From: Raillietiella orientalis
Taxonomy: Eukaryota
DNA: 64,000 nt
Direction: 5' to 3'
Assembly: GCA_036172245.1 (NCBI GenBank)
Contig: JAYWIR010000051.1
Location: forward strand, 1 to 64,000
The position numbers and the translations under genes were made by a program. Shown one piece after another: positions 1 to 64,000 of the stretch. The notes beneath the pieces are model-generated. The model made no database searches. It had not been told where the DNA came from and saw only the letters and a program-made list of their open reading frames with translations. Within the stretch, counting starts at the first letter, position 1. Each line of letters opens with the position of its first letter.

Positions 1-540
1 TCATGTGGACCACCACGGAGCGGTCCATAGATACTGGCAGGATCTTGCGGCCGTCTACGTTCAGCGGCGCATGGATAAGGCGGTGAGCCAAGGTGACATC
101 TTTGCAGACCACCTCGACCCGCTGCCCGCCGCTGAGGACGGAGAGGCCGTCCAGATCCTTCTCAGTGACATTCGCGTCCTTCAACGCTTTGCTGAAGGCG
201 CGCGCTGTCCGGCCGTCGAACAAGTTGCCTACCTGGTAGACAAGCGATGGCTTGTACCCGGAGGCCTTGTATGCGGCCATCTCCGCCATGGCTTCTGCGC
301 TGGGCGCGGCCACCATGGCGCTCCATGTCCTCAGCGTGGCCGGGGATGATTCCGGGGCGGCTGCCCCTGCTCCAGTAGGCTGTGGGGGCGAACTAGCCTC
401 CCCCACTCCCACCTCCATCGCGGTGTCCTCTGGCGTCGTGGCCATTGGACACCGACGATGTACACAAAACACCACACAGAAGAAAAAGCGCTTTCCTACT
501 ACTCTTTGGGGAGTGAAGGAAAAACACGTCCTCCAACTGG
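1..540 (-). mobile_element. 5' end and ORF1 N-terminus of a family-G-like copy (ATG at 445), runs off the window
   Basis: Minus strand encodes MATTPEDTAMEVGV...GYKPSLVYQVGNLFDGRTARAFSK, matching ORF1 at 27506; GGACGTGTTTT 5' motif near 520-531. Confidence 0.8.
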
Positions 541-544
541 CCGC

Positions 545-1895
545 GGAGGGTTCTGGCTGCAACGAGGCTGCCAGCTCCTCCGCGGCTCGCGCGAAGGCTT
601 CGTCATCGATGGTGGTGTCGATGACGGACGCCGCCGCCGGCTCGCTTTCCTCGCTGTTGACTGTGTCAACAGAGGGGAGGTCGTCGGTAGCGGCGAGTTC
701 TTTCCGGCAGCGTTCGGCAACATCGAGAACGCGTTCGACAACGACGCTGCACTCTTTAATTATCGCGCTACCCTGCTCTTTCTTCTTCTGTTGGTAGGCG
801 ATTTTCTTTTCCATCCTCCTCTCCTTCTTTGATTTTTTGGCCGTTGCCACTTGCCACCCAGTCTCATGGCCGGCTCCCTCAACTTTTCCGGCGTTGGTCG
901 CCGGGGTCTCGGGTGCGGCCTGGGTCTTGGGCGCGGGTGGCACAGCCTTCGCGGCAGCTTTCGCCGCCAGCCTTTTCTGCAGAAGCCGGGCGCGTTTTTT
1001 AAGGTTTCTCTTGGAAACCACCCGCACTGCTGCTTTAGGGCACACCTCCCTCGTGTGGCCCATTGTGCCGCATACTTGGCACTGCACATTGGGACACCTC
1101 TTTTTGAGGTGGCCCGACGTATTGCAGAAGCCACAGTATTTCGGCTTCCCCACATACCAGAGGTCGACGGTTTCGCCTTCGACCACCAGTTTGTGGGGAA
1201 GAGTGCAGCCCTCCCGAACGGTCACGCGCGCAGCAGTGAGGCCGTGTTGCAGCCCCGTGTAGTCCTCGAAAGGACTTACTTTCGTCCACTGCGCGTGGAC
1301 CGTTCCGAACTGTTCCAAAGCGGCGCGAACCTGTTCTTTGCGCATTCGCGCGGTGACGCCTAACAGGTGGACCACCATGCTGCGGTCCGCCGTAGTGGGG
1401 AGGAGCCTGCGCGTCCCCATCACAACGGGGGTTTTAAGCAGTCGTTGGGCCAGCTCTGCATGTTTGCAGATGACCTCAACGTACTGACCCTCGCTGCGGA
1501 TGGTCATAGCGCTGAGCTCCTCCTCTTTCACATCGAGAGCGCGAATGCCCTTCGAGAAGGCGCGCGGGCTCTCTAAAGAATATAAATTGCCCACCTTGTA
1601 GAACAATGAGGGGTTGTACCTTTCCTCTACATAGGCCGACAATTCCGCCGCGGCTGCAGGCGATGGCGCCGACACAACGGCGCTCCTCGCCCGCGCTGCA
1701 GCAAGGACCGATTCTGTGGGGGCGGACGCCCCCACCTCCATCGCCTCTGGGGGCGGCGTTGCTGCTGCCCCCTGGCCATCCCTGGTGGTCACGTCAGGCA
1801 TCGCTGCCTGATCGACCACCGAATCACACGATGCTTGCACTGGGGGAGACTTCTTGGCACGAGGAGCATCGAGAAAACACGTCCACCCTGGAGCG
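545..1895 (-). mobile_element. Family K 5' end and degenerate ORF1
   Basis: Colinear and highly similar to 45035-46426; knuckles CGFCNTSGHLKKRC / CQVCGTMGHTREVC; 5' end abuts CACAAGGCGTTCGA. Confidence 0.88.
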
Positions 1896-1938
1896 CACAA
1901 GGCGTTCGACTCCGAGAAAACACGTCCGCCCTAGAGCT

Positions 1939-4045
1939 CACAAGGCATTGGAATGTGCAGACCAAGAACTCCTCTTGGAGCTTCTGGGTCGCATGGGCTT
2001 TCCACTCTCCTTGATTTCCTACCAGTGCTGTTGCTGGAGGAACGCGATAATTTCGATCCTTTTCACTAGTCAAAAGGTGTATGGCGTGCCGGTGCGGGGG
2101 GGCATACATCATGCAGATAGTATCAGTCTTCTGCTCTTTAGCAGCTCTTTTGAGTTGGTGCTGAGAGCGTACAGGGTGACTTCGGCCCCCTTGCTCAGCT
2201 CGTGCCCCGGCACGCCCGCCGTAAGTTTTTATGCCGACGATCTTCCGCTCCTGTTACCTATGTCCACTACGGCGAAGGCGGTCGGAGATTTCTTCGACCT
2301 GTGCAGCCGTGGGACCGGACTTCAGGTGAATAGGGCGAAGTCGTCGGTGGTGCCAGTTGGTGCGGCGTGGGCAGGGCAGCAGGACTGGCTTTGTTTGGGG
2401 ATACCCAAGGCGAGGTGCTTCAAGTATCTTGGTGTGCCGTTGGGGGTCTTCTCCCCTGCGGAAGCGTGGTCCAGCTGCCTCCAAAAAGTCGAAACGGCGA
2501 TCGGCCCGTTCCTGGAAGGCAAGTTTCACTCTCCGGAACGGGCTGCGGTTTGGAACGCCTTTGCGGCCCCCATCCTCCGCCCCTTGCTTTTTGTTTCTCT
2601 CGACCCAGGAGTAGTTAAAAAGAGGACGAAGGACCTCCTCCGCTTCGCCCTTTAAGGCGAGGGGGGCCCCGAGTCCCTTTGAAGGACCTTTGCGCTCCTC
2701 GTCGGGATGGCGGACTTAGCCTCGTGACGCTGGAGCGCGTGAAGAAACAGCTGCGATGGCGTACCCTCGCCATCGCAGTGATGATTTGGAGCACCCCGTG
2801 GTGCATTCCGGCTCGCCTCCTCGCCAGTCGTGTGTCCCGGTGCGAGGGACTCACGTATTTTCTTCTGTGCTCCGGCCGGAAGATCAGAAGTTGCGGCCTA
2901 CAGCTCGGGCGCATGCCATCGTCTGCCATGGAGAACAGCTGGATGGTTTGCTGCCCCGCCAACTCCTCCGCCTGGCTGAAGGAGAACATCGGAACGTGGG
3001 CAGTGGTGAACCAGAGAAGCCACGTAACGTGGAACCGTCTCCGATGCGGCCCCTACACCCGCTGCACTCTGAGGAATCTCCTGGAGAATCCAGCTAGAAG
3101 CACGTGCGCAGAGACAACCTGCCTGGCTACGGCGCTGCCTTTCCTGAGGAGGGCGCTTCACAGCAGTCGTACGCCAAGGTGGCAAGTCTCCTGCTCTATC
3201 GAGGGACGGGAGAAAAAAATGAGCGGCTGGACCATGGGTCAACTGGCGGACGCCACGACCCCGAGCGTCCACCCGCGAGCACTAAGAAGATGGGGCAAGC
3301 TGCTGGCCATCCCTGCGGATGTTCTGAAGTGGCCCCCGCTTCTTCAGGAATCCAGGATCCTGCCTCTTAAGTGGAAAGAGTCGGCGTTGCTGTTGTTGCA
3401 TTGGGGTTTACCCTGCAACGCACGCCGCTCTCACTAAACAAGAGGAGTTGTGGATCCTGCGTGTGTCAGGTGCGGAAAGCGGGAATCGCTCTCCCACCTT
3501 ATTGTGGACTGTGCTGCCCTCCGTCCCCTTTGGGAACGGTTTGGGACGACCCTCGGTCTCCCTACGGGCAGTTCCTCTAGAGACGTTCTTCGGCCCCTCT
3601 TCGTGAAGGACGCCCTGCAGCCAGCCTCAGCCATCGCAGCCTTGTGCTGCGTCCCAGGCATCGTGGCGGCATGGAGCGACACCAACAAGGAAGGAGTGGG
3701 TCAACACGCAAGGGATGTCATCGCATATGCCCAACGCTTCTTGCGGAGAGCTGCTGGATGGCCCTAAGTGGGGAACATACATATGGACCTCGAGGGCTTC
3801 CTTCAACGGATGGGCCCTCCTCTCAGCGAACAGTGATCCCTTCCCTGCCCTCCAACCTTTTTTGTTTGTTCGTGTTTTTATTTTTACTTTTGTTTTTTCC
3901 CCATCCCCTTTCGCTGCCTGGGAGTGCCACGCCGTGCTGCGTCCCGGCGTCCCGGTAGGTCCCGTGCATAAGGCCGTGAGCGGGGCCTGGTACCGCAATA
4001 GTAGAGTTTTAATTAATAAACGCCCCGGAAGCATCCGGGTGGCAA
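1939..4045 (+). mobile_element. Family G 3' half (RT from HKA.. to zinc finger, 3' UTR, terminus), frameshifted
   Basis: HKALECADQELLLELL...YADD...KYLGVP in ORF 1606-2655; CVRCGKRESLSHLIVDC; terminus AATAAACGCCCCGGAAGCATCCGGGTGGCAA ends 4045. Confidence 0.9.
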
Positions 4046-5920
4046 CACCAAATCCCCGGTGCAGGCGGTGCAAAGGGAAATCCTCGCAGAACTCGCGGAC
4101 CGAGATTTTCATGCGGTCCCAGTCTTTGAGGTTGCGGAGGATGACGCCTCTCAGGAACTGACGGAGATGTTCCGCCGCACCGGAGATGCGCGTCCAGTCC
4201 CCTGGCATACGCCACGCCCTGGATGGTGGTCCTTTGTCGCGTGACATAATTTCGATTATCAACCGGAAGTGGTCCGATAGCGTCGACGGAAGTTTCGCTC
4301 GTCTGCCGACACGTGGGCACAGGTCGGCGTCAAGAAAGACGTGGTCTACGCTTTGGGCCATTTCCGGTAGGTCTCCCAGCAAGTTGCGCGTACGCATAGC
4401 GGCGCACAACTCGTTGGTTGCGTCTTTTTGCCTGCAAGGCACACCTGAGAGCAGGCGGATGTTGAAATCCCCACCGATCAGATGTGCCTTGCGTACGTTT
4501 GTATCCGCCAGCCAGTCGCGCTTCAGGGTTTCGAGCAACCGGGAACGTTCCCCGTACCCGCGTCCTCCGCTCGGAGCGTACACATTAGTCACGACAAGGT
4601 CCATCGAGTCGGACCACGTAAGGATAAGCTGGCCAACCCGACCGTCCTTGTCGAATCCTACGTCCTTCACGAAGGAAGCGACCGCTGGCTTCATAAAAAA
4701 AGCGACGCCACAGGTGTTGCGAGCGCCGCATTGCCAAAACAGACGACCCCCTGCGATCCTTTCGATCTCCTGGGCGTTCTCCACGGTGATCACGTGGATC
4801 TCCTGCAGGAGTGCCAGGTCGAAGTCACGCAGGATGTCGTCCGTGTCCCGCCTGTTGCCGTCATCGCGCAGCCCGTTGACGTTCCAGCAGGGTACGCGTA
4901 TCCTACGGCGACAGGCGAGTCCAGGTCTTAATCCTGGGAAATTGGCAATGGTGCTCAAGCCACCTTGTCGGGCGGGACGCTAGGAGCAGGGGGTGCGTCG
5001 CGCACCGCTTCTCTCTCCTCCATGGAGGACGATTCGTCGTCGGAGCCTTGCAGAGGAAGTAGGGGTTCACTCACCTGCACATCCTCCTTCATGGGGGTCG
5101 CTAGCTGCACGGTGTCGGGGAATGAGATATTCCCACCCTCGCCTCCCACGCTGCTGGCTTCCCCCTCGGGGGCCGATTCATCCGCCTCCTTATTGATCCG
5201 GATGCGCCTCCTGGGATTCTGAGACTTACGTCCCGTCTTCTTTGGTGGCGCCTAATACTACTATGCTTCGACAACTCCTCATGGACGCTCGTTTTGTCCA
5301 TTGGGAGTGATACGCCTGTGAGGTGGACCACGATGGAGTGGTCCTCCGTCACAGGGAAGATCCTGAGGCCGTCCACCGTAATAGGGGTGTTCAGCAGTCG
5401 CTGCGGCAGACTTGCCTCTTTGCATGTTAGCTCAACTCGCTGGCCCCCACTAAGGACGGATAGGCCTAAAAGGTCTTTCTCCCTCACGTTCAACCTTTGC
5501 AGCCCCATTTCGAAGGAGCGTGCAATTTTTTCATCAAAATCAGTGCCTACCTTGTAGATCAGAGACGGCTTGTAGCCGCTGTCCTTGTAGGCAGTTTGCT
5601 CCGCTACTGCATCCGGGGATGGTGCAGCAACGACGTCACTCCAACTCCTCGCCTATGGCGAAGAGGGTCGCGAAGGGGCGGTTGCCCCCGATTCCGATGG
5701 GGCAAGTGCCCCGGATTCCGTGGGGGCGGATGCTTCCACTTTCATTGGTGGAGGAGAGCGTGTCGCTTCTCCTCCTCCAACTTCCATCGCGGTGTCCTCA
5801 GGCATTTCTGCCATGGGACACCGGTGCTCCCACACACCAGCCAACCAACGAAAAGCTTCCCACTAACCAGTCCGTGGAGCGATGCCATACCACGTCCGCT
5901 CCCTAGAACGACACGGGGAA
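4046..5920 (-). mobile_element. Family G 5' half: internally deleted ORF1 plus complete APE domain, cut at GFG
   Basis: ORF 3627-4958 carries WNVNGLRDDGNRRDT...SDH...RGFG; ORF1 ATG near 5815; knuckle region missing at about 5255-5270. Confidence 0.88.
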
Positions 5921-5921
5921 G

Positions 5922-6092
5922 TTTTCACCCGGTCACGCCGGGGCGTTTATTGTTAAACACTTTGTTTTAGCGGTACGAGGCCCCGCTACGGCCAATAGTT
6001 CTTTGAACCTGCCGGGAAGCCGGCTGGTAGGCCGGCTTGACTCTCCTCGGCAGCGGAGGGGGTAGGGGGTAAAAACGAAAAAAAAAATAAAC
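5922..6092 (-). mobile_element. 3' UTR and terminus fragment
   Basis: Reverse complement of AATAAACGCCCCGGCGTGACCGGGTGAAAA at 5922-5951, plus GGGGCCTCGTACC motif and T tract. Confidence 0.8.
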
Positions 6093-6094
6093 CC

Positions 6095-6649
6095 TCCTGC
6101 ACCTTCTAGTTGAATGTGCTGCCCTCCGGCCCCTGTGGTAACGTTTCGGTTCCACCTTATGGATCCTGGAAGGTAGTCTTCCCAGAGGCGTTTTTCGGCT
6201 CCTCTTCGTGCGGGACGCCCTGCAGCCAGTCGCTGTTATAGCAGCTCTCTGCTGCGTACGCGGTATTGTGGCAGCTTGGAGTGGATCCGACGAAGCAGAG
6301 GATGCTAACAGAAGGAATGCCGTGGAGTATTCAGCTCGCTTTCTGCGAATAGCATCCCTATGGCCCCACCTGGGAAATCTGCAGAAGGACCTCGTCGGCA
6401 TCCTGCAAAGGATGGAAGCTCCACAAAACGGACAGTGATCCTTTCCCGACCCTCCCAATGACCAATGTTTCTACTTTTTATTTTTTTTTATTTTTGTTTT
6501 TTCCCTAACCCCATCCGTTCACGTGGAGTGTTATGTCGGTCTGTGCACTGACCACCAGACAGCTCTATAGAACTTTTGGCTGCAGCGGGGCCTTGTACCG
6601 CAAAAACTGTTAGTTTTTAAATAAACGCCCCGGCTTGACCGGGAGAAAA
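6095..6649 (+). mobile_element. 5'-truncated 3' fragment (end of ORF2, 3' UTR, terminus)
   Basis: HLLVECAALRPLW...ALCCVRGIVAAW; terminus AATAAACGCCCCGGCTTGACCGGGAGAAAA ends 6649. Confidence 0.85.
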
Positions 6650-8515
6650 CTTCGAACTGTACACTGCACACTGCCTTTGCGACGGCTGGCTTTAGCAGGA
6701 AGGCCACTCCACCGGATCGCCAAAGTAGCCTTCCCTCTGTGAGCCTCTCGATCTCCTGGATGCTTTCTCCCCTGAGGGCGTAAACCTCTTGGAGAAGCGC
6801 CAGGTCGAAGGGTCGCAGGGTGTCGGCCACGCTACGCCTCTTGCTTTCGCCACGCAGCCCGTTGACATTCCAACAGGCTATACGCAGCTGCCTGCAAGAG
6901 GCGATTCCATGCATCATGCTAATGATGGTGGTGGCGATTGTGTAGCCGCCTCCTGTTCGGGAGGCGGCTGGTCGATGTCCACCTGCATGGACGGCGTTTC
7001 CGCAACGACCGGAACGTTGGCAGCCGGACTGAGGTCGATCGGAAGATCCGACCGGGCGGTTTCCACGGAGGGATCCCGCGACCTCGAGGACATCGCCTCC
7101 TTGCTACCCGAGCGCATTTCCTCCTTCTCAGCCTGAGGGGGAGCGACGCACATAGGGTTGCGGGACTTCCGGCCCGCCTTCCTCTTCGGGAGGGCGACGA
7201 TGGGAGCGTTTCCGGCTTCCGTTTCGGACTCGGAAGTTTCCGGTCCTTTGGCTTCCACCGGACGTCTCACGGCCTTCTTTGCAGCCTTAGGCGGCTGCAT
7301 TAAGGTGGCCGCGAGTTCCGCCACCGCCATCGCGAAGTTTTTCTCGTCGCTGCTGCTCGCGTTCCTGTCGCAGGATTCCTGCGCCGGTTCCGCGGCGTTC
7401 GCAACGGTTGCGGGAGTCGTGTTTGCCGATCGACGTTCGATCGACGGAACGCGCTCGATGTTAACGCGGCATTCCTTTATTATTTCGCGCGGCGTAACTT
7501 TTTGCGCCGTTCGCGGTTTTTTTCGGTTTGCTCGCGTTCTGATTTGTGGATTTTTTTGGTTTTTCGTTATTAAGATTTTGATTTTTGGTTTTTTTAGTTG
7601 CGACTGGTTTCCAGACTTCCTCGCCGACGGTTGGATCAGAAGTCTCCTTTTGAAACTCCTGTTCCTTTTGTTCGGCTTCTTCTGAGTTTCGCTGTTGGTA
7701 GCTGTTTGGTTTTTTTTCTGCCTTCTTCCCTTCTTTCAAAATAGGGGTTTCAGGCATTGTATCGGCGTTTTTCGGGCACACAACGCTTGCGTGGCCCTTA
7801 GCGCCGCACGTTGGGTATGTGGCGTCCAAGCATCTCTTTTTGAGATGACCAAACGTGTTGCACAGCCCCCAGTATTTTTGTTTCCCTACGTACCAAAGAT
7901 CAACGAGCTCGTCGTTAATCTCCAGCTTGTGGGGACTTTGAATGTTTTTGCGAAGAGTTACGCGAGCGGCAAGTCGCCCACTAAATGCGCCTCTATATGT
8001 GAAGGCGTTGGACTTCTTCCACATCGCGTAAATCTCAGCGAACTTGTTAATTTCAGTGCTGATGGCTTCATCGCTCATCCGCACTGTTGTTCCTGTTAGG
8101 TGGATCACTATCGAATGATCCACCGTATGTGGGAGAAGATTGCGCCCTTCAAAGGGAACGGGCGTGCAGAGCAATTTGTGCGTGAGCGCTGCATCTCTGC
8201 AGATGAGCTCCGCGAACTGCCCTCCGCTTCCTACCGAGAAGCACAGAATCTCCTCCTCTGTAATGCCCATCCTACGGATGGCGTTACCAAATTTCCGCGT
8301 AGTTAGCGGTGACTATAAATTCCCTACCTTGTACAGCAGGGCTGGATTGTAACCTTCTTTGATGTAGGCTTGCACTTCTGCAGCCACGTCCGGCGGAGCC
8401 GCCGCGGCCACTTTATTGCAAGCCCCCGCCGGGTGGCTAGGCTGATTTTGTGGTGGGGCATGACCCCACCTCCATGGGTTGGGGAGACGTGGATCTCACG
8501 CCTCCCTTTGCAGGT
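6650..8515 (-). mobile_element. ORF1 (degenerate) and APE N-terminus, probably the 5' part of family T
   Basis: ORFs 7461-8270, 6914-7330 and 6531-6917 (MHGIASCRQLRIACWNVNGL..LQEVY); TGATG overlap at 6912-6916. Confidence 0.85.
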
Positions 8516-11494
8516 TTTTCACTCGGGTGAGCCGGGGCTTTTATTATTAAAATTTTTTAAAATACACAAAAAAAATTTCATAATAACGTAATGATTTGTT
8601 TCTTTTTGTTGTTGTTGTTCTTGTTCTTGTTTTTCAGTCGGGACATATTACCCGAATGGCTTGAGGCACTTGTCGTTACCGACCTGAAGGCAGATAAGGT
8701 CCTCTACACTGGCGAAGGGGTGCGGAAAACAAAAAATAAACAAAAAAAAGAAAACGCTTGGGGGGGCAATGTTCTTCGGGAGGGGGAGGGAAGGAAAGGA
8801 ATCACGGTACGCCGTGAGGAGGCCTTTGAATCCGGTCTCGGATGCGGACGAGTGCCTGAAAGTGTTTTCCAAGACGGCGCCAACGGCAGGCCTTCTCCAA
8901 GGAGATGGTTGCCCAGTGGATGGCATTCCGACTGGCATGTCCTCTCCTTGACGCGGTCCACTTGTCCAGTATTCCGCGTATGCAACAGAGCACTGCTACA
9001 TACCCGTAAGCTGGCAAGGCGTTCCGCATCAGGAGTCGAAATATGTTCTTAGGGTCGCCTAGCGGAATGTTCAAGATCGACGAGAGTCGGTCCCACATAT
9101 CGCGAAGGGCAACGCACTCAATTATTACGTGAGGACAGGTTTCCCTTTCCCCGCACTCTGCGCAGTTGTCATCCAACATTCCCCGATGTCTAGTGAGACA
9201 GGTGTGCTCTGCTTCAGAGTCCCTAATGGAGCAGAAGCAACGCCGTCTCCTGCCACTGCAGGGGAAGGGTGCCGTTATCCCACAACGCCGGGTGCCACTT
9301 CACCTCCTTTGGAGGTACTTCGAGCAGCGCGCCCCAGCGTGAAAGTTCATTCGGTGGGACACTCGGGGTACTAGCGTACGCTAGTTCCCGGTACATCCAC
9401 GCCTTCAATAATGTTTTCCTGCCTCCGATGAGGCAGGACACTTCCCACGATGCCTCCTGCTGGCTGTCCCGAACTTCCCTGAGGGAGGGCAGCACTGAGG
9501 CAAGGAGGGTAAAGGAGGCCCACAGAAGCTTCCGTGGGTTGCTGACCATCTCCTGCAGTGGCTGACTAGCGTACCTGCCTCTACGGAGGCAGGAGAAGTC
9601 CTCATCGCTGGAGCCGTTGATTTTAGCCCATGCGGAAATGGATTCCTGGAGCCAGGTAGTCCAGTCCACATGGATGCAGGAGATCCACGGATTGTCTCTC
9701 AGCAGGGCAACCAAGTCCAGCAGCTGAAAACCAAAGTAGTTAGGTCTGCGGTCGTTGGCTACTTGGATTGAGGTCAATCCATGGCAGCCGGTTGCCCAGT
9801 AAGCCAGGAGTCTTGACGGTGCACACCAGGGTGCGGTCCAGTACTTTGCCACAAGGGCAAGTTTACGGAATTGGAGCTGTTGCTTCATGCGCTCCAGCGT
9901 CAGGAGACCAAGTCCACCGTGCCTGCATGGAGCGCACAAGACTTTCAGACGGACGCGTAGCTTCCGATTTCCCCAGAGGTCTTTTCTAATGAGGCCCCTT
10001 GTCCCTTGACGAATCCGGGGAGGTATGGGGAATACAAAAAGTAGGAGGCGGAGGAGGGGGGCCGCAAAAGCGTTCCACACCGCGGCCCATTCCTGCAAGT
10101 AAAACTTGCCTTCCCGGAACGGGCCGATCGCCAACTCCACCTTGTGGAGTCGGTCGGATCAGGCTTCCGCAGCGCAGAAGTCCCTCAACGGAACGCCCAG
10201 GTACTTGAAGTACCCTTTTGTGGGGATCCCCAAGCGGATCCGGTCCGACCGTCCTGCTCGCGACGAGTCCGGAGAAATGATTGACGACTTCGCCCTGTTT
10301 ACCTCGTAACCCGTCCCATGGTTCAGCAACTCAAAGAAATCTTCGAGCGCCCATGCCAGGGTGAACCCGGGAAGCAGAAGCAAAAGGTCGTCGGCATAGG
10401 CCGACACGGCAAGCGTGCAGGGACAGGAGCTCGGCAGGGTTGCCAAAGTCTCCCTGTATGCACTCAGCACCAACTCAAATTAGATGCAGAAGAGCAGGGG
10501 GCTCAAGCTGTCACCCTGCCGGATGCCGCGACGAACCGGCACGCAGTACACGTGCCGGCCGCTGAAACCGATATTGATTGACGCGTTGCGCCAGCAGGAG
10601 CGCAGGTAAGATTGAAGCACGGCAGGGAAACCCATGCGTTCCAAGAGCTCCAGAAGGAGATCCTGGTCGACGCAGTCGAATGCTTTGTGCAAATCGACCG
10701 CGACGGCAAAGGCTCCCGCCGAGTCCATCCCACCCTCTGCCCGATCTTCTTGGTCAGAGGGGGGCGCGAGGCTCCCTTGACCGTCCTGTGCAACGCGTTG
10801 TCGCAACTGCCACCATGAGCTGGCGAGGAGCAGGTTGGCCTCCATGGTTCGTCCGGGAACAGCGTAAGTCTGTTCCGGACTGACCACGGATTCCGCTACC
10901 CGTCCCAGACGCTCAGTCCAGTGCTTGGTGAGCAACTTTGCGTCCACATTCACCACAGTGATAAGACGCCAGTTGCCAACGTTGCGCAAGTCTCCTCCCT
11001 TAGGGAGGAGAGGTACTCTAACTGACCGGAACGAGTTGGCGACATCCTCGCGTTCTCGGATCAGCAAACACAATTTGAGCACCAGGAGAGCCAACTCTGC
11101 CGCTAAGTGGAGGTAGAATTCAGCTGGCAGGCCGTCTTCCCCTGGTGCTTTGTTTTTTTTTAGTTTTTTGATGGCGGAGACAATCTCCGCCATCGTAAAT
11201 TCCAGTTGAAAAGTGTGACGTTCCTCCTCCCTTAACGCGGGAGCACCCTCTGGCAGGCGACGCTGCGCAAAAGGGCTCTCTGGTGTTCTCTTAGCGTAAA
11301 AAGAGGAGTAGAAATCCCGCAAAATGCAGCAAACCTGCGCTGGAGATGAGTGCTCCTGGCCTTCTTCGTCCGGTAAGCAGGCAGACCCGGATTGCCAGGC
11401 CTGCCTCTCAGCTCCAGCCTTGAACTCCGCCAGGCGACGGACGTCGGGCTTGTTGAACAAACGACGGGCCTAGGAATAGTTCCTCTCATGCGGA
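8516..11494 (-). mobile_element. Family T 3' two-thirds (linker, RT, zinc finger, terminus), with stops
   Basis: ORFs 10480-11460, 10159-10473 (YADD), 9223-10140, 8802-9179 (CAECGERETCPHVIIEC); terminus hairpin at 8516-8546. Confidence 0.9.
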
Positions 11495-13622: not shown

Positions 13623-13631
13623 CACGAAAAG

Positions 13632-21941: not shown

Positions 21942-22158
21942 TTTTCACCCGGGTACGGCCGGAACGTTTATTGAAAAAACTCTGCATAAACCTGGTACGA
22001 GGCCCCACTAACGGCTACACAACACCGTACCTGCCGGGACGTCGGGACGCAGCCCGGCGTGACCCTCCTCGGCAGTGGAGGGGGATAAGGATCAAAACAA
22101 AAAGAAAAATAAAGATATGAAAAGAAAAACAAAAAGAGTTTGGAGGGAGGGGAAGGGA

Positions 22159-49679: not shown

Positions 49680-49693
49680 CACAAGGCGGTCGA
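49680..49693 (+). repeat. Isolated 14-bp target-site copy (CACAAGGCGGTCGA) between two tandem K elements
   Basis: 13/14 match to CACAAGGCGTTCGA (HKAFD codons); flanked exactly by a K 5' end and a K 3' tail. Confidence 0.8.
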
Positions 49694-52052: not shown

Positions 52053-52140
52053 GCGTACGTGTTTTTGTAGCGCTCCTCCGCGCCTGGTGTAAAGCGTTTG
52101 GTTTCTTTTGTGTTCGTGTGTGGAGCATCTGCGGTGTCCA

Positions 52141-54161: not shown

Positions 54162-57100
54162 CACCTGGGCTCGCCTGTCGCCGTCGATTACGCGTGGCCT
54201 GCTGGAACGTGAACGGGCTGCGCGACGACGGCAACAGACGGGACACGGCCGCCACCCTGCGTGACTTCGACCTGGCACTCCTGCAGGAGATCCACGTGAT
54301 CACCGCGGAGAACGCCCAGGAGATCGAAAGGATCGCAGGGGGACGGCTGATGTGGCAATGCGGCACCCGATACACCTGCGGCGTCGCGTTTTTTATGAAG
54401 CCGGCAGTCGACGCAGCCGTGAAGGGCGTGCACTTCGACGAAGCCGGTCGTGTCGGCCAGCTGATTCTCAGGTGGTCCGACACGATCGACCTCGTCGTAA
54501 CAAATGTGTACGCTCCGAGCGGTCCTACCAGGTACCAGGAACGTAAGGCGTTCCTGGAAACCCTGAAGCGCGACTGGCTGGCGGAAGCGAACGTGCGCGT
54601 GGCTCACCTGATAGCGGGAGACTTTAATCTCCGCCTGCTATCAGGTGAGCCACACGCACAGGAACGGACGGCTAACGAGTTGTGCGCCGCCATGCGCACG
54701 CGCAACTTGTTAGGGGATCTTTCGGAAATGGTCAGCAGCATCGACCACGTCTTCCTGGATGTCGACCTGTGTTCACGGGTCGGCAAACGAGGGAAAGTTG
54801 CGGCGGAGCTGTCTGACCATTTCCGGTTGATATTCGAGGTGTGCCCGCGCGACAAGGGCCCCCCATCGAGGGCGTGGCGTCTGCCTGGGGACTGGACGCG
54901 ACTCTCAGGTGCGAAGGAACACCTTCGCGAATTCCAGAGAGGCGTCACCCTCCGCAATCTCAATGATTGGGACCTTTTTAAGGCCTCGGTCCGCTTGTTT
55001 TGCGAGGAGTTCCCCTTGCACCTCCTGCCCCGGGGATTTGGGGAGGGCATCCGTAACGAACGAGCGTACTTGTATGCCCGTGGTTACGCGAGGACCCCCA
55101 ATGTCCGTCGCCTGGCAGAGTACCGAGCCGGGGCCGAACGTCAAGTCTGGCAATCCGGATCGGCCAGCTTGCTGGACGACCAGGACCGGGAGCACTCGGC
55201 TCCGGCTAGAATACGGCACCTCGTGCGGCGTTTTTATTCCTCCCTTTACGCCAGGGCGCCCCCGGACCAAGATGCCTCCCGGCGCTTGCTTCCGAACGGT
55301 GCCCTGGCAATAGGGGAGGAGGAGAAGGAAAGCCTCGACGAGCCTTTTACCACCGGCGAAATTCTCGCCGGTATCAAAAGGCTCAAGAGGCGGAAAGCAC
55401 CAGGGGAGGACGGCCTGCCTGCGGAGTTTTTTCAATGCTTCGCGGCAGAGTTGGCACCCCTGGTGCTTGAGTTGACAAGGCTGATCCGAGATGAAGGCGA
55501 TGTACCCGCCTCGTTTCGGTCAGCCAGAGTGAGGCTCCTTCCGAAAGGAGGAGACCTCAGGAAACTCATCAACTGGCGTCCGATCACAATTGTGAACACG
55601 GACGCCAAGTTGATCGCCGGACTGTGGGCTTCGCGTCTGGGGCAGGTGGCCAATTCCATACTTAGCCCGGAGCAGACTTACGCTGTTCCCGGGCGAAGTA
55701 TGGAGGCCAACCTCTTCTTCGCGAGCACATGGTTTCATGTGCAGAGTAGTCAAGAAAAGGAAGAGGGAAGGATTGGCAGCCCCGCTTTGGGGGCGTCAGC
55801 CGGGCAGGGACAGGACTCCCAGGTGGGGAAGGGAGCCCTAGCGATCGCAGTCGATCTGCACAAAGCGTTTGACTGCGTGGACCAGGATCTCCTGCTGGAG
55901 CTCCTGGGACGCATGGGCTTCCCTCTCTCCCTACTGACCTACCTGCGCTCTTGCTGGCGCAGCGCGCTGATCAATATCTCTTTCAGAGGTCAAATGGCGT
56001 ACGGCGTGCCGGTACTGCGGGGCATACGGCAGGGCGACAGCCTCAGTCCCCTGCTCTTTAGCACCTACTTTGAGTTGGTGCTGAGAGCGTACAGGGTGAC
56101 TTTGGCCCCCTTGCCGAGCTCGTGCCCCGGCACGCCCGCCGTTGCAGCATACGCCGACGATCTTTTGCTTCTGTTGCCGATGTCCACCCCGGCGAAGGCG
56201 GTCGGGGATTTCTTCGATCTGCTTAGCCGCGGGACCGGACTTACGGTGAACAGGGCGAAGTCGACGGTGGTTCCAGTCGGTGCGGCGTGGGCTGGGCAGA
56301 AGGACTCGGTCCGCTTGGGGATCCCCACGGCGAGGTGCTTGAAGTACCTTGGAGTGCCGTTGAAGGACTACTCCCCTGCGGAAGCGTGGTCCGGCTGCCT
56401 CCAAAAAGTGGAAACGGCGATCGGCCCGTTTCTGGAAGACAAGTTTCTCCTTCCGGAACGGGCCGCGGTATGGAACGCGTTCGCGGCTCCTATCCTCCGC
56501 CCCCTGCTTTTTGTTTGCCCCGTCCCCAGAGAGTTGAAAAAACGGACGAAGGACCTCCTGAGAATTGCCCTTTGGGGAAGAGGGAGGCCCCGAGTCCCGT
56601 TGAAGGACTTGTGTGCTCCACGTCGGGATGGCGGTCTCGGCCTCTTGACGATGGAACGAGTAGAGATTCAGCTGCGGTGGCGAACCCTCGCCATCGCAGC
56701 GAAGTTATGGAGCACCCCTTGGTGCGTTCCGGCCCGAATCCTTGCCAACCGTGTATCCGGAACGGAGGGTCTCGCGTCCTATCTTCTCTGCCGTGGCAGG
56801 AAGATCAAGAGATGCGGACTTCTCCTGGGAGGCATGGCAACTCTGGCTAAGGAAAACGGCTGGATGGTATGCAGCCCCGCCAACTCCTCCGCATGGCTGG
56901 AGGAGACAGCTGGCACGTGGGCGAAGATAAACCAGAAGAACGGAGAGATGTGGAACTGCCTGCGACGCGGCGCCTATTCCCGCTGCACTCTGCGGAAGAT
57001 ACTCCAGTGTCCCGCGAGAAGCACGTGGGCAGAGACAACCCCCCTAGCTACGGCGATGCCCTTCCTGAGGAGGGCGCTCTCCAGCAGCCGCAAGCCTTGG

Positions 57101-57748
57101 TGGCAAGTCTCCTGCCGCATCGCAGGCAAGGAGTAGTTGATCAGCGGCTGGTCCACGGGTGAATTGGCGGACGCCAGTACCCCTAGTGTCCAGCCGAGAG
57201 GATTGCAGAGATGGGGCGAGCTACTCGGCATCCAGCCGGATGACCTGAAGTGGCCCCCGGTATTAATTGGATCTAGGATCCTCCCCCTGAAGTGGCAGGA
57301 GTCGGCGCTTATGTTGTTGCATTGGGGTCTACCCTGCAACGAACGCCCCCACCACTGGACCAGGGGTCGAGTAGATCCTACCTGCATCAGGTGTGGGGAA
57401 CGGGAAACCCTCCCCCACCTTCTTGTTGATTGTGCTGCCCTCCGACCCCTGTGGGAACGTCTTCGTGCCTCCCTACGGATCCAGGAGGGCAGCCAGCCCA
57501 GAGACGTTTTTCGGCTTCTGTTCGTGCATGATGCCCTGCGTCCAGCCGCTACCCTGGCTACACTTTGCTGCGTACGCGGGATTGTGACGTGCTGGAGCAA
57601 CGTCAGAAGACCGAGCCACGACAGGGATGCCGTCGTACTTGCAGTCCGCTACCTGCGGATTGTGAACAGATGGCCCCAACTGGGAATTATACGGACGGAC
57701 CTCGAGGGCATCCTGCGAAGGATGGACCCTCCTTCCAGTGGTCAGTGA
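54161..57748 (+). pseudogene. ORF2 APE-RT-zinc finger (about 1195 codons), open except one TAG at 57134-57136
   Basis: ORFs 54023-57136 and 57137-57748 are in the same frame; APE and RT motifs intact; CIRCGERETLPHLLVDC. Confidence 0.92.
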
Positions 57749-57954
57749 TCCCTCCCCAACCCTCCCAAATCTTTTGGTTTTTATGTTTTATTTTTCTTTT
57801 TGTTTTCTCCCTCACCCCCTTCCGCTGCCGAGGAGAGTCGCGCCGGTCTGCGTACCGGCGACCCGGCAGGTCCAGTTGAGTTGGCCGTAGTGGGGCCTCG
57901 TACCACGAATCAGAGAGAATTTTTAATAAACGCCCCGGCGTGACCGGGTGGCAA

Positions 57955-59758
57955 CCAGCAACTTGGCGTCCGCATTCACTATTGTGATGGGACGCCAGTT
58001 GTTCATGCTCCTCAGATCTCCTCCCTTAGGGAGCAGCCGCACCTTTGCCGAACGAAACGAGGTGGGAACGTCACCTGTTTCGTTAAGCTCAGCCGCGAAA
58101 TTTGATAAAACTCCGCGGGCAGGCCGCGGATTTGGGCAGGTGCCGAGTGCTCCTGGCCCTGATCGTCCAGTAAGCTGGCCGATCCGGACTGTTAGGCTTG
58201 CCTCTCGGCTCCCGCTTTGTATTCCGCCAGCCTGCGGATGTCGGGGGTCCTGGCGTAACGACGGGCCTGCAGATAGGCTCGTTCGTTACGGACCCCGGTC
58301 CCAAAACCCGTAGGTAGGCGGTGCAGAGGGCACTGGTCGCAGAACTCCTGGACCGACCGCTTGAAGCGGTCCCAATCCTGGAGTGTCCGCAGCCTGAAGC
58401 ACCGTATGAACGTGCCGAGATGTTCCGCCGCGTCCGGGAGCTTCAGCCAGTCCCCTGGGAGACGCCACGCTGAAGAGGGGGGGCCCCTGTCGCGCGGATG
58501 GATCTCAAGGACTAGCGGGCGATGGTCGGACAGCTCGCACGGTAACTTGCCGCGCCTGCCCTCGCGAGGGCACAGGTGCTCGTCAAGAAACACGTGGTCA
58601 ATGCTGTCTTCCATCCCCGGTGCACTGGCCAACAAATTACAGGTGTGCACCGCCATGCACACCTCGTTGACCAGGTCATGCTCGGGATTCTGCCCATCTG
58701 GTTTCAGGCGAACGTTGAAATCGCCTGCAACCAGATGGGCATTCCGCACGCCTGCTTCGGTCAGCCAGTCTCGCCGGAGGGCAAGGAAAAACTCTTTCCT
58801 CGCCCTTCTGTTCATCAGGTCCTTGCCGCTCGGTGCGTACACGTTCATGACGATCAGATCGATCGAGTCGGACCACGTGAGAGTCAGCTGGCCGACACGA
58901 CCGTGATCGTCGAACCGCACGCCCCGAGCCGCGGCCTCGACGGCTGGCCGAAGCAGGTAGGCGACACCGCAACTTTTCGCTCTCGCACACCTGTACCATA
59001 GCCGCCATTTGGAGATCCGTTCGATCTCTTGCGCTTGTGCTGCAGAGATCACGTGGATCTCCTGCAGCAGCGCAAGGTCGTAGGACTCCAGAAGGGCGGA
59101 TATGTCTCGTCTTTTGCCGGCGTCTGTCATGCCGTTCACGTTCCAAAAGGCGATGCGCTGACGACGGCGGGAGGAGATTCCCGGCATTACTGCTGGGAAG
59201 ATTAAGGTGCGGGGGAGCCCTCCTCTTGCGAGGCGGGCGGGATGTCCATGGGGGTTTCGGCCTTCTCAGGCACCTGAGGCACCTGTTCGGCCTCCACCCC
59301 CTCCATCTCCTCCGTGTCCGCGCGTGGGAGTCTCTCGGGCGACGGGTCCCGAGAGTTTCCCACGCTCATGGCACCCTCGCTTGCGGAAGCCATCTCTTCC
59401 CCTTCGACGGGGAGACGAGCTTCCATGGCTTTGTGGACTTACGTCCAGCCTTCTGGCGCGGTGCCGTGGAAACGGAGGCTGCGCTTCCGACCTCCACCTC
59501 GGGGTCGGAAGTGGAGGACTCCTGAGGGGAGGCCGGACGCCTTACGGCCTTCTTGCCAGCCTTGGAGGGTTCTCGCTGCAACGAGGCTGCCAGCTGCTCC
59601 GCGGCTCGCGCAAAGGCTACGTTATCGATGGTGGTGTCGATGACGGACGCCGCCGCCGGCTCGCTCCCCTCGCTGTTGACAGAGTCAACAGAGGGGTTGT
59701 CGTCGGTAGCAGCGAGTTCTTTTTCGCAGCGGTCGGGAATACGTTCGACGACGACGCT
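57955..59758 (-). mobile_element. Family K ORF1 C-terminus, APE and deleted linker (upstream part of 49694-52052)
   Basis: ORF 58192-59187 complete APE; TAATG overlap at 59185-59189. Confidence 0.9.
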
Positions 59759-59848
59759 CGCACGGACGTGTACTGTGTTGCTCCTCGAGCGTGATTCCTG
59801 TCCGTCTTTTTGTGTGTGGTGGGCCCGAGTGCGTCCACTGGGATGTCC

Positions 59849-61786
59849 ATGGAACCCCTGCAGCAAAAGATGGATGTGGAGGCTGCTACTGGCAGTGGAG
59901 ACTCTTCTCCACTTGTCCGGTCCGCCTCTGATTCTTGTGTCTCGCCACCGGCGAGAAGCTTCGCCGCCGTCGTCAAGGCGGCGGCAGCCAACGGAGCACC
60001 GCCCGACGAAGCAGAGCTGCAGGCATATGCAGCCCATGGCTACAAGCCTGCGCTCTGCTATCCGGTGAGTGCTTCTATCTCCGACGGGGTCGGAGAAAAT
60101 TTGTGGGACGAGCTTTTGCGCGTCGGGGTCCTTCAGGACGACCTCCTGGCCGTCATGCCGGTTAACGCGCTCGGACACTGGGAGGTGCACTGCGAAGAGG
60201 CATCCCTAGTCCAGCGCCTTCTCCGCACCCCGCTAAATATCCGCGGGAAGGAGGTCGTCCCGTCGGCCATGGACCAGTCGTTCGTGGTCCGATTATCCGC
60301 CGTCCAGGTGGACACGCCCGATCGCGTGCTCGTCGCTGCACTAAGTGCATTCGCCACGGTGCACGCGCTGTGGAGAGCAGAAAATCCGATCAAAAGGATT
60401 GCATCTTTCTACAGCGGACTTGCCATGGCGCGTGTCACCATGGTGGATAGGAGGCAAATGCCTCCGCACTTGCAGGTGGGCGATGCGATCATCCACCTTA
60501 AATTTGCCGGTCAGCGACCGGCTTGCGGCATTTGCGGTGCAGAGGGCCACCGTGCGTGGACGTGCCCTTCACGCAACTGCCGCTATTCTAAACACCTCGG
60601 TTACTCCATCAAAGAGTGCGCCGAGCTGAAGAGAAAGCGGCAGGCGAAAAGCCGCCAACATTCGACCCCGTCCGCGCCGAAAAGATCACCCGTTGTGCCA
60701 CGGGAGAAATCTGGCGCGAAGGGCGGGGCATCTTCGAGTGGAGCTCCCGCGAAAAAGGACGCGGTTGCTTCAGGGAAGCCACCATCCCAGACAACCGCGC
60801 AGACGGGAAAGATGCCACGTCGCCCTAGGGGCAAATCGCCCCCTTCGAAGCAGCCTAAGAGTGCGGGCACGCACTCAATCAAGGCAGCTGAACCGTCCGC
60901 GTCCGCTTGCGCGTCCAGAGGAGCACACGGGAAACCGTGCGCGGGTACCCCCGGAGCTGCCTCTGAACGGCAGTCTCCTCCTACGGCGGTGGAGATCACG
61001 TCTTCCACGCCGAAGGTACGAGCAGCGAAGGCTGCAATAGCGCCTCGCGGGACGACGGCAATGACCGGCGTTTCGCCCGCATCGGCTAAGGAGCAGGTGC
61101 AGTGCGTAACGGGGACGGAGCCGTCTCCCGCCGCGAGCGCGAAACCTGAGCTCGCATCTCCGGCCAAACAATTGAGGGAGGCGTCGGCCTCCCAGGAGGG
61201 CGTCCCCGACGCGGGCTGGACTCGAGTCTCCAGGATGCCCACAAAGGGGAAGAAGAAGGTTGACCCTTCAATATTCCCCATCCTTAAGGTGGGTGGGAGG
61301 CAAAAGAGAAGCACGCCTAAGAAGGTGCGTACCCAGGTACGCACTACGGCTGCGTGCTCTGTCTCCGTCGCTTCGCGCGAGACGGCGGCTGCGGAAGCCA
61401 AAGCTCCGGAAGCTGCGTTGGCGACTGCGACGACCCCCGCGCGGGCAGGGCAAGCCTCCACCTGCCGAAACAAAAAGAGCCTGGCAAAACGCCAGTCTCG
61501 CGCCAGGCACTCGGATTCCGAGATGGAGTCCGAGTGCAAACAAATGGAGCGCGCATCCCGGGGTAAGCCGGTAGCGCGCCGGGCTAAAGTGCGAAAGCAC
61601 GAGCCTGTTGCCGGAGGCGGTTCCGGCTCCTGCACGGAGACCGAGGCGATGATCCTCGGCTCCCAGGACTCAGCTGGGCGCGATGTGGCGGCGAACGGGA
61701 GCGATTCCGCTTCCCAATCCGCTCTCCTACCAGCTGACTTCTCGCCGGACGGGGCGAGGAGCACGCCGTCATGTCCGCAGCAGTGA
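59849..61786 (+). CDS. Divergent ORF1 gag-like protein, about 645 aa, open
   Basis: CGICGAEGHRAWTC knuckle (second knuckle degenerate); GYKPAL.Y and VHALW shared with other ORF1s; start could also be 59843. Confidence 0.8.
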   Translation: MEPLQQKMDVEAATGSGDSSPLVRSASDSCVSPPARSFAAVVKAAAANGAPPDEAELQAYAAHGYKPALCYPVSASISDGVGENLWDELLRVGVLQDDLLAVMPVNALGHWEVHCEEASLVQRLLRTPLNIRGKEVVPSAMDQSFVVRLSAVQVDTPDRVLVAALSAFATVHALWRAENPIKRIASFYSGLAMARVTMVDRRQMPPHLQVGDAIIHLKFAGQRPACGICGAEGHRAWTCPSRNCRYSKHLGYSIKECAELKRKRQAKSRQHSTPSAPKRSPVVPREKSGAKGGASSSGAPAKKDAVASGKPPSQTTAQTGKMPRRPRGKSPPSKQPKSAGTHSIKAAEPSASACASRGAHGKPCAGTPGAASERQSPPTAVEITSSTPKVRAAKAAIAPRGTTAMTGVSPASAKEQVQCVTGTEPSPAASAKPELASPAKQLREASASQEGVPDAGWTRVSRMPTKGKKKVDPSIFPILKVGGRQKRSTPKKVRTQVRTTAACSVSVASRETAAAEAKAPEAALATATTPARAGQASTCRNKKSLAKRQSRARHSDSEMESECKQMERASRGKPVARRAKVRKHEPVAGGGSGSCTETEAMILGSQDSAGRDVAANGSDSASQSALLPADFSPDGARSTPSCPQQ

Positions 61787-62843
61787 TGCGTGGACTCGCG
61801 TCCGCTCGTCGCGTCAGCGTGGCCTGTTGGAATGTCAACGGGCTACGTGATGCTGACAAAAGGCGGACGGTAGCCAACGCTTTGCGCGCGTTCGATCTGG
61901 TGCTGCTGCATGAGATACATAGCATCTCCGAACGGCAGCCATCGGATCTGGAAGAGCGCGCGGGCGGAACGCTACACTGGCGGCAAGGCTCCGCGCACAC
62001 GTGCGGAGTCGCGTTCCTCGTGCGAGGCAGGGTGGCGGAGGCGGTGCGGAACGTTTGTTTCGACGAGGAAGGTCGTGTGGGCCAACTTGTCCTCAAGTGG
62101 TCTGAATCGATCGACATGGTCGTTACGAATATCTACGCGCCGAGCGGCGGCCGGCATTACGCCCAGCGACTTGCATTCCTGGGTGGCCTGCGCAGCCGCT
62201 GGCTCGCTGACTCCGGCCCTAACGTGGCGCACCTCCTTGCAGGAGACTTCAACGTCCACCTGCTAACAGAGGAGAGATGCCGCTTGAGGGAGAAGCAACT
62301 GGTGAGCGAGGTATGCGCGTCCGTGCGCGTGCAAAACTTGCTTGCTGGTGAGCCCGGGATGGAGAGATCGACGGACCATGCGTTCCTCGATGAACACCTG
62401 CTCTCACGAGTAGGTCGGAGAGGGCGTCTGCTGTCCGCGATTTCGGATCATCCTAGACTGGAGTTCGAGCTCCTCCCGCCTAGCAAAGGGCGTCCGATGA
62501 ACGTCTGGAGGTTGCCGGCCGACTGGCTTAGCAATTCGGAGGCGGCGGAGCATCTCCGCCAACACCTCCTGGGCTTCGCCATCTGTGAACTCGAGGAATG
62601 GGACGATCTGAAAAGATCGGTCCGCGAGTTCTGCTGCCGGTTCCCCTTGCACCTGCTTCCCCGCGGCTTCGGGGAGGGTGTCGCGAACAGCAGATCCTAT
62701 CTGCAGGCGCGTACCTTTTCACGATGCCCGGACGTCCGGCGTCTGGCGGAGTATAAGGCCAGGGCCGAGCGCCAGGATTGGCAGTCTGGAGCGGCTTGTC
62801 TGCTCGAAGACGCTGGCCAGGAATGCTCGGCTGCAGCCGAAGT
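61786..62843 (+). pseudogene. ORF2 APE domain and linker, truncated by insertion
   Basis: MRGLASARRVSVACWNVNGL...NIYAP...GDFN...SDH...RGFGEG. Confidence 0.88.
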
Positions 62844-64000
62844 TTGCCACCCGGATATGCCGGGGCATTTATTATTCTAATTTTCTACAAAAATTAGATA
62901 ATAAAGCCTTTCAAAAGTTAATTGTGGGAAACACTTGGTTTTCCCACCTTGGTTGACGTGTATGTTGCCGGTGCATAGACCGGTTAGGTCCATCCCCGAG
63001 GCGCATGGGAAGGGAAAACTAGAACAAAAACAAACAAAAAGAGAGATAACGGGGAGGGAAACAGTTGTATGGGGAGAGGTGGGTGGCAGGGAAGGGATCA
63101 ATGGGCGCCTGGGTCGGTCCTCCGCATCCTGTTCAGGATGCAGTCAAGTTCAGTTTTTATTGTGAAAGGTAGACGCCACCTTGTCGCCGTCTCTAAAGAA
63201 ATCGTCGTCCAGTGGATGGCGTCCCTGCATCTTGGGTCTCTTCTTCTGGCGTGCCACCTTTGCACAATGCCGCGCACGCAGCAGAGGACTGCTAGCGACG
63301 CAGCAGGGCGCAGGCCGTCACGCAGAGAGAAGCGACGGTAAATTTCCTTAGGGTCGCCTACTGGAACATGGAGGATTGGGGCGATTCGACTCCAGAGTCC
63401 AACCAGGGCGACACACTCGAAGGCAAGATGCGGGAAAGTTTCACTTTCTCCGCACTATACAATGCGGGCATCCACATTCACTAGTGTCCAGTGAGACAGG
63501 CGTGCTCTGCTTAACAGTCCCCAGTGCAGAAATAGCAACGCCGTCTCCTGCCACTTCAACGGAAGTGTACCGCAATCCCGAAACGCTGGGGGCCACCTCA
63601 CCTACTCCTAGGGTATCGCGAGCAGCACTTCCAAGCGCGCAAGTCCGTGAGGCGGGACGCTCGGGGTGGCAGCGTCTGTGAGCTCCCGAGTCGTCCACGC
63701 CTTTAAAGGTTTTTTCCTACCTTGGATGAGGCAGGACACTTCCCACGATGCCAGCTCGTTGCTGCTCCTACTGTTTTTCAGGGAGGACAGAATGGGGGCA
63801 AGGGAGCTGAAAGAAGCCCACAGGAACTTCCGGGGCGTGTTGATAATCTCCTGCAGCGGCTGTCGAGCGTACGGTCCTCGTTGTAGGCAGTTGTATTCCG
63901 CCTCGCTCGTGCCGTTGATCTTAGCCCACGGGGAAGCTGACTCCTGAAGCCAGGCAGTGCAGTTCGCGGGGATGCAGGAGATCCAGGTATTCTCCCTCAT
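62844..64000 (-). mobile_element. Family T-like 3' end, near-twin of 29596-30750; runs off the window
   Basis: Long identical stretches with 29930-30500; terminus at 62844-62874. Confidence 0.88.

Follow-up and report, generated by a model that had tools for sequence, protein, structure and literature searches.

Zepp in Chlorella and Coccomyxa and ZeppL in Chlamydomonas are L1-type long interspersed nuclear elements (LINEs) that, in the portions of the literature consulted, gather almost solely in clusters of their own, and the LINE-dominated domains that they form are candidate centromeres in green algae (PMC8226300, PMC3446292, PMC9940879). Zepp nesting gives tandem arrays of 3′ ends, as one of these accounts describes it in part (PMC8226300). 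Cnl1 of Cryptococcus, a non-long terminal repeat element, is likewise described, in the portion consulted, as preferring its own copies and forming nested arrays in tandem orientation at subtelomeric positions (PMC9942834). How new LINE copies locate old ones is treated in the same excerpts as an open question for self-nesting clusters (PMC8226300, PMC9940879). Here we describe a 64,000-nt stretch of Raillietiella orientalis DNA (contig JAYWIR010000051.1, positions 1 to 64,000; hereafter the window) in which LINEs of several subfamilies lie nested in one another, nearly always in antisense orientation and at defined positions within coding sequence.

The window is like the Zepp and ZeppL clusters, as far as the partial descriptions go, in being a LINE-dominated cluster that grows by insertion into existing copies. 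Parsable nested events, together with the dominance of LINE sequence, indicate this mode of growth. Its likeness to Cnl1, on a similarly partial account, is the formation of nested arrays by insertion within its own copies. The differences concern orientation and sites. The algal elements form tandem arrays of 3′ ends, whereas here four of 15 3′ ends join a same-strand copy and 11 of 15 are antisense; moreover, several subfamilies each occupy exact sites in coding sequence, whereas the Zepp descriptions consulted give neither orientation nor defined sites. Cnl1 arrays, in the portion consulted, are tandem and subtelomeric, whereas those described here are antisense, involve several families and have no telomeric repeat within the window. 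A limited literature search, with the original Zepp paper outside its scope, returned no description of antisense, site-specific nesting of LINEs within LINEs in the portions covered. What is new here is site-specific LINE behaviour combined with a self-nesting LINE cluster, antisense at defined coding sites.

In mechanism, the nearest known systems are probably the sequence-specific LINEs: R1 and R2, which occupy 28S ribosomal DNA, Tx1L, which occupies the Tx1D transposon, and TRAS and SART, which occupy telomeric repeats. They share with the elements in the window an endonuclease nick at one exact multicopy sequence with a fixed orientation, short target-site duplications and tandem re-insertion. 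They differ in that the targets here are motifs within the protein-coding sequence of other LINEs, among them the active-site region of reverse transcriptase (RT), and in that a single gene is hit at different sites by several sister subfamilies, with every site seen on one strand.

LINE sequence is demonstrable over 94% of the 64-kb window by self-comparison and by tblastn with the open reading frame (ORF) proteins, ORF1 and ORF2, of the most intact copy. This copy, F26 (52053–57954), serves as the reference, and a reference coordinate is the window coordinate minus 52059. Stretches that gave no match lie within elements, in untranslated regions (UTRs) or variable parts of ORF1. Both strands carry long open frames with Exo_endo_phos and RVT_1 domains, with CCHC knuckles in the frames upstream, and the G+C content is 53–63%. 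The window is a LINE-only cluster built of copies nested in one another. It is made up of about 29 fragments (F1–F29) from at least six subfamilies; this parse is our own reading of the comparisons, and some boundaries are precise only to about 10–40 nt.

The elements are LINEs of the apurinic/apyrimidinic endonuclease (APE) type. In the reference copy, PF03372 (E = 4e-12) and PF00078 (E = 6e-21) fall within 54020–57136, the same domains recur in other copies, and ORF1 carries a zf-CCHC domain. An ORF2 with endonuclease followed by RT, a defined 3′ end, variable 5′ truncation (F5, F6, F9, F11 and F21 are among the truncated copies) and target-site duplications complete the assignment. The full-length relatives found for ORF2 are at most 26–27% identical, the sole closer match being an unnamed 619-aa protein (66%). 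A metagenome scan with an ORF2 alignment gave five loci at 25–35% identity, too distant for use, and Protein Atlas matches were to generic endonuclease-plus-RT clusters only.

Fifteen element 3′ ends share the terminus ...AATAAACGCCCCGG-N4-6-CCGGGTG, after which come about four A-rich bases and no long poly(A). A scan for AATAAACGCCCCGG that allowed up to three mismatches gave 19 matches against 5.2 expected, and 14 matches with two mismatches or fewer lie at termini; the fifteenth terminus, at 48483, carries a diverged form of the shared end. On the plus strand the termini are at 4045, 6649, 13622, 37367, 44494, 48483 and 57954, and on the minus strand at 5922, 8516, 16347, 21942, 29596, 39000, 49694 and 62845. 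An AATAAA hexamer stands 20–22 nt ahead of each of the 15 ends; it resembles a cleavage signal, and the tail that goes with it is very short. We also considered a conserved 3′ hairpin; a fold is possible, but RNAalifold yields three pairs and no covariation, and the terminus is conserved in sequence. Full 5′ ends have a common leader, GGACGTGTTTT..GCTCC. Rfam has no match anywhere in the window, and therefore no known ribozyme lies at these 5′ leaders.

To assign orientations, the 450 nt downstream of each terminus were compared by blastx with the reference ORF1 and ORF2 proteins. Ten of the 15 flanks match antisense coding sequence, four (at 5922, 8516, 13622 and 49694) match the 5′ region of a same-strand copy in sense, and one (29596) gave no match. 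This last flank is a diverged plus-strand endonuclease fragment by pairwise BLASTP (E = 1e-12, 227 collinear residues) and tblastn (E = 1e-8), and the total therefore becomes 11 antisense and four same-strand joins. On the other side of the elements, the upstream flank is antisense at eight 5′ ends (the full starts of F2, F12, F13, F17, F22, F26 and F28 and the truncated F9) and sense at two, F1 (~540) and F15 (28537). An earlier note, made from the letters of the window alone, had claimed nesting that is almost exclusively antisense, with only two sense 5′ junctions, at ~540 and ~28545. Our counts confirm this polarity and recover the same two exceptions. All 15 termini in that note were also found, except that its position 62844 is the junction and the terminus, at 62845, is that of the minus-strand element to its right.

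The antisense arrangement is real and more regular than chance. Adjacent fragments lie on opposite strands in 22 of 28 pairs (binomial p = 0.0037, on our own fragment list), the 3′ junctions that enter internal coding sequence do so in antisense in 11 of 11 cases (p = 0.001), and 15 of the 17 orientable events are likewise antisense (p = 0.0023). Because repeated hits on one site do not test orientation independently, the fair measure is the count by site: eight of eight distinct 3′ sites are antisense (p = 0.0078).

The junctions recur at exact nucleotides. Site T1 lies at reference ~2983, at the codons for ..GFG about 70 residues past the endonuclease domain. The 3′ ends at 4045, 16347, 21942 and 37367 meet it at the same nucleotide, and the 5′ ends of F13 and F9 adjoin it as well. 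Site T2 (reference 3803–3814) corresponds to the RT codons K-A-F-D read in antisense and is used five times, by the 3′ end at 39000, as a 12-nt remnant at 49682–49693 and by the 5′ starts of F2 (1938), F17 (31757) and F22 (46428). Site T4 (reference ~1330), in the ORF1 region, receives the 3′ end at 48483 and the 5′ start of F28 (59762/3). The remaining sites, at reference ~2265, ~2380, ~3154 and ~3558 and at the RT start of F15, fall in endonuclease, linker and N-terminal RT coding sequence and receive one 3′ end each. All sites lie within reference ~1330–3870, with none in the last 2 kb or in UTRs, and other copies retain unoccupied homologues of T1, T2, T4 and further sites. Reuse of T1, T2 and T4 at the same nucleotide, always in antisense, is behaviour to be expected of a sequence-specific LINE. 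The possibility that the sites are simply conservation peaks was rejected as a general rule, since seven of them fall at percentiles of 0.21–0.83 and the idea holds modestly just for T2 and the F26 site.

Three insertions can be seen whole, and each is flanked by a target-site duplication of 11–15 bp. That of F26 is an exact 15 bp, CCAGCAACTTGGCGT, at 52038–52052 and 57955–57969; that of F13 is 11 bp with one mismatch (21931–21941 and 27623–27633); and the T2 duplication around F20–F22 is 12 bp with two mismatches (38988–38999 and 46429–46440). The split halves of the interrupted hosts (F25 and F27, F12 and F14, F19 and F23) are collinear, and each pair belongs to one family.

Site use also follows subfamily, which was assigned from the last 540 nt of the elements. 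Subfamily A1 comprises F3, F11 and F13, A2 comprises F9 and F17, and A3 comprises F26 and F5, with F6 a single member of the A group. Subfamily B consists of F20 and F25 (94% alike) and subfamily C of F16 and F29 (94% alike), and F8, F21 and F23 are singles outside the named subfamilies. By 3′ end, the users of T1 are A1 (F3, F11 and F13) and A2 (F17, and F9 through a remnant and its 5′ side), and the users of T2 are B (F20 and F25). The D-like elements F21 and F23 were both inserted at a nick after CGTTCG.

We consider sequence-specific target-primed reverse transcription into the ORFs of relatives, subfamily by subfamily, to be the best account of these data, with a probability of roughly 60%. 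At least six related LINE subfamilies with an endonuclease-plus-RT protein and an ORF1 bearing CCHC knuckles would build the LINE-only domain, each integrating at its own short asymmetric sequence in a resident copy, where ORF1, the endonuclease or the N-terminal part of RT is encoded. The recognised site would have a single orientation because it is asymmetric, and at every site seen the nicked primer strand would be the sense strand of the resident, which would place the new copy in antisense. Full insertions would yield the duplications of 11–15 bp, and other insertions would be 5′-truncated or joined upstream with the loss of 0.8–3.3 kb of resident sequence. Element anatomy, junction positions and orientations, duplications, site recurrence and the link between site and subfamily are observed directly; from them we infer in what order the events occurred and that sequence is read by the endonuclease or its ribonucleoprotein. 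This reading explains why the sites are exact, why duplications flank the inserts, why site use tracks subfamily and why orientation is constant at any one site. The earlier note had argued that the primer is repeatedly the sense strand of the resident, and that logic is correct, the new copy being antisense; its suggestion of strand-specific recognition by each endonuclease likewise fits the recurrent nucleotides, the subfamily-linked sites and the 11–15-bp duplications. The nucleotide sites, the duplications and the relation of subfamily to site make the targeting problem one that can be tested with defined oligonucleotide substrates.

Rather than forming a class apart, the four same-strand joins are better explained by a duplicated target copy having been used again. 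As the earlier note had noticed for at least one of them, a target-site remnant separates the 3′ end from the next 5′ start, and 12–16 nt of such sequence is present at all four; the remnant is a T2 copy at 49694 and T1-like at 13622. In the proposed sequence of events, a later copy would use the duplicated target copy just upstream of an earlier insert, giving a head-to-tail join. With re-insertion into the upstream copy of the duplication, these four joins would not be sense insertions into resident coding sequence.

Several observations weigh against sequence-specific insertion as a complete account. Were specificity for sites the only factor, antisense orientation at all eight of the different 3′ sites would not be predicted, and when cases seen only at the 5′ side are included, the count of distinct antisense sites is nine of 11 (p = 0.065). 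The core of the D-like sites, CGTTCGA, occurs seven times on sense strands and nine times on antisense strands, and a short core therefore cannot set the strand. The two C copies occupy different positions (F15 and reference ~3154) that have just AAC[GT]TC in common, and the A-group elements F26 and F6 occupy sites of their own rather than T1; specificity is therefore not absolute. The 5′ end of F17 meets T2 of F16 and its 3′ end meets T1 of F18, which requires either that ~820 bp of host be missing or that there were two hosts, and for the F19–F23 element the 5′ side lies at the T4-homologous position in F18 and the 3′ side at T4 of F24, F18 and F24 being of different families. Some events therefore need added steps of deletion or rearrangement. 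Furthermore, composite junction regions are 74–82% alike between loci, with inserted and resident identities that rank alike, and some composites may descend from an old duplication. Finally, all of the findings come from a single 64-kb window. Upstream joins of F21 and F6 also show apparent loss of host sequence.

The uniform polarity could instead be a rule in its own right, with a guild of LINEs able to prime only from the sense strand of LINE genes, an idea that we regard as doubtful. Its cause might be that displaced single-stranded DNA is the form in which the target is recognised, or that elements nicking the antisense strand would also cut their own first-strand complementary DNA, leaving sense-strand nickers as the only ones to survive self-targeting. 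If true, LINEs would parasitise the ORFs of their relatives and build a LINE-only, perhaps centromere-like domain with promoters antisense to those relatives.

A specific mechanism of this kind, in which the ribonucleoprotein nicks the displaced sense strand in an R-loop or transcription bubble and a weak endonuclease preference picks the nucleotide, seems improbable to us. It would predict the polarity everywhere, as found at all eight distinct 3′ sites and all 11 internal 3′ junctions, and it is in keeping with the confinement of sites to reference ~1330–3870, clear of the last 2 kb and the UTRs. Nor does a short motif otherwise explain the polarity: among nine motifs counted on sense and antisense strands, none had a useful strand bias. 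Yet repeated use of the same nucleotide and the link between subfamily and site point to the reading of sequence, GC skew along the elements is weak (+0.02 to +0.04 over F26), and two sense 5′ junctions are present. The earlier note had offered an R-loop formed by transcription or guided by element RNA. Inserted and resident elements are 72–79% alike around the sites, and the diverged host F15 has only 24% protein identity to the F26 ORF2 over the endonuclease region (the inserted F16 itself was not the comparator). This low identity makes an R-loop formed by the incoming RNA unlikely and weakens the RNA-guided version; a transcription-coupled version may still apply. If it held genome-wide, a strand rule that spans many sites would newly constrain target-primed reverse transcription and would give such domains an inherent source of convergent transcription.

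Survivorship could also produce the pattern if copies inserted in both orientations and sense-nested direct repeats then collapsed by recombination, leaving the antisense ones visible. The domain has been rearranged, as mosaics (F17, with a B-like 5′ part and an A2 3′ end, and F20, which is 94% identical to F25 only until 40027) and the resident losses of 0.8–3.3 kb at junctions attest. However, inserted and resident copies are mostly of different subfamilies and 65–80% alike, which makes them poor substrates for homologous recombination; none of the 15 3′ ends lies on sense internal coding sequence, although partial collapse should leave some; and loss does not account for recurrent exact sites with duplications. 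We judge this explanation highly improbable.

We give very little credence to the proposal that there were far fewer independent events, with a few ancestral composites copied by segmental duplication or by retrotransposition of host plus guest, or with junctions that are assembly artefacts: similarity does span junctions (545–2599 versus 45036–47087, 82%; 15443–19304 versus 21031–24941, 74%), and inserted and resident identities rank alike across the four T1 events, but similarity over junctions is no higher than between subfamilies generally, other ends lie in different contexts (the 3′ end of F3 at T1, that of F23 at T4 and F16 in F15), the bases at 3′ ends vary by event (GGCAA, GATAA, GAAAA and GGCAT), the duplications and collinear split halves fit single insertions, and a related sample has the 62845 junction. 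Twin priming is ruled out as the cause, the junctions involving complete 3′ termini of different subfamilies.

The related sample (run X1) consists of short contigs that are 95–99% alike to the window and hold 0.16 of the sampled words; the best 8 of 135 pieces were considered. Among the matches listed, one contig spans the 62845 junction (62613–62896), another extends 30 nt beyond the 44494 junction (44146–44524), and most junctions are neither bridged nor contradicted. Independent read support for the junctions is thin. A further contig among these matches aligns from 57959 on, and the letters that precede the match resemble sequence to the left of F26 (~52030). An uninterrupted B-type copy at the F26 site would look like this, although the contig may be a paralogue.

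The fragments are given here from the left edge of the window. F1 (1–540, minus strand) is a 5′ part with leader and ORF1 that continues beyond the edge, and its 5′ start at ~530–540 adjoins F2 in sense. F2 (545–1938, minus) is the 5′ part of a B-type element, and its start adjoins T2 of F3 in antisense. The 5′ end of F2 is doubled: 1896–1952 holds the T2 copy of F3, a 29-nt partial leader, a different T2-like copy and the full leader. From this arrangement, a copy of the target may be present at the 5′ end of B-type RNAs. F3 (1939–4045, plus; A1) runs from the T2 site to a 3′ end at T1 of F4, which itself extends from its 5′ start through the endonuclease region and stops at T1 (4046–5906, minus). 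A 15-nt remnant (5907–5921) separates the 5′ start of F4 from F5 (5922–6091, minus), a 170-bp 3′ fragment in tandem upstream of F4. F6 (6092–6649, plus), a 3′ fragment of 560 bp, ends antisense in the endonuclease coding sequence of F7 at reference ~2380, and F7 (6650–8500, minus), of a diverged family, runs from its 5′ start to that position. In tandem upstream of F7 is the C-like F8 (8516–11495, minus), from T1 to the 3′ end.

The 5′ side of the 5′-truncated F9 (11496–13622, plus; A2) adjoins T1 of F8 in antisense, and its 3′ end is in tandem with F10, with the T1-like remnant between them. At ~11497–11540, F9 reads through the RT region without the ~27 nt that hold the KAFD codons, that is, the T2 site, the deletion being at ~11534. 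F10 (13639–16346, plus) extends from its 5′ start to T1, where it meets the 3′ end of F11 (16347–19334, minus; A1), which begins at reference ~2890. F12 (19335–21941, plus; 5′ start to T1) and F14 (27623–28536, plus; T1 to reference ~3870) are the left and right halves of a resident interrupted at T1 by the antisense insertion of F13 (21942–27622, minus), a full-length A1 element of 5681 bp.

F14 is joined in sense by F15 (28537–29595, plus), a diverged LINE fragment from the C-terminal part of the endonuclease to the start of RT. It has a lower G+C content (53% locally), comes from a far more diverged family and forms one of just two sense 5′ joins. A search with a profile built from close copies gave no match to F15, and pairwise BLASTP settled its strand. 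F16 (29596–31756, minus; C) runs from T2 to a 3′ end that lies antisense within F15. The full-length F17 (31757–37367, plus), with its A2 3′ end and B-like 5′ part, is antisense to both flanks: its 5′ start lies at T2 of F16, and at its 3′ end it meets T1 of F18 (37368–38736, minus), a resident piece that extends from the T4-homologous position to T1.

The D-like F19 (38737–38999, plus), which stops at T2, and F23 (46429–48483, plus), which runs from T2 to the 3′ end, are the left and right halves of one element interrupted by F20–F22. Within this interruption, F20 (39000–40027, minus) is the 3′ part of a B element with its 3′ end at T2 of F19, and F22 (44495–46428, minus) is the 5′ part of the same element. 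The 94% identity between F20 and F25 ends abruptly at 40027, and the following ~0.5 kb (40028–40540), between F20 and F21, shows no detected resemblance either to the reference proteins or to other copies. F21 (40541–44494, plus), D-like and 5′-truncated, ends antisense in the endonuclease coding sequence of F22 at reference ~2265. The 3′ end of F23 lies antisense at T4, in the ORF1 region of F24 (48484–49681, minus), a B-type piece from the 5′ start to T4 that has the T2-like remnant 49682–49693 ahead of its start.

In tandem upstream of F24 is F25 (49694–52052, minus), the 3′ part of a B element that F26 parts from its continuation, F27 (57955–59762, minus; reference ~3570 down to T4). F26 itself (plus strand) is full-length at 5902 bp, with an ORF1 that bears a CCHC knuckle and an ORF2, encoding endonuclease and RT, that contains a single in-frame stop (57134–57136). 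The 5′ start of F28 (59763–62844, plus) adjoins T4 of F27 in antisense; this fragment comprises ORF1 and the ORF2 endonuclease and is interrupted by F29 (62845–64000, minus), a 3′ part of subfamily C that is 94% identical to F16 and ends antisense in the F28 ORF2 at reference ~3154.

The ORF1 of F28 is uninterrupted over 663 codons (59795–61786) and gives only a weak CCHC signal; it is much longer than that of F26, which is divided as 347 + 350 between two frames. In the N-terminal part of the F26 ORF1, a tandem repeat of 24/48 bp (52218–52416) encodes repeated units resembling ..GATAAPLKK... A 42-bp tandem repeat of 2–2.5 copies is present in the 5′ regions of F17 (31887–31989) and F22 (46225–46307), on opposite strands.

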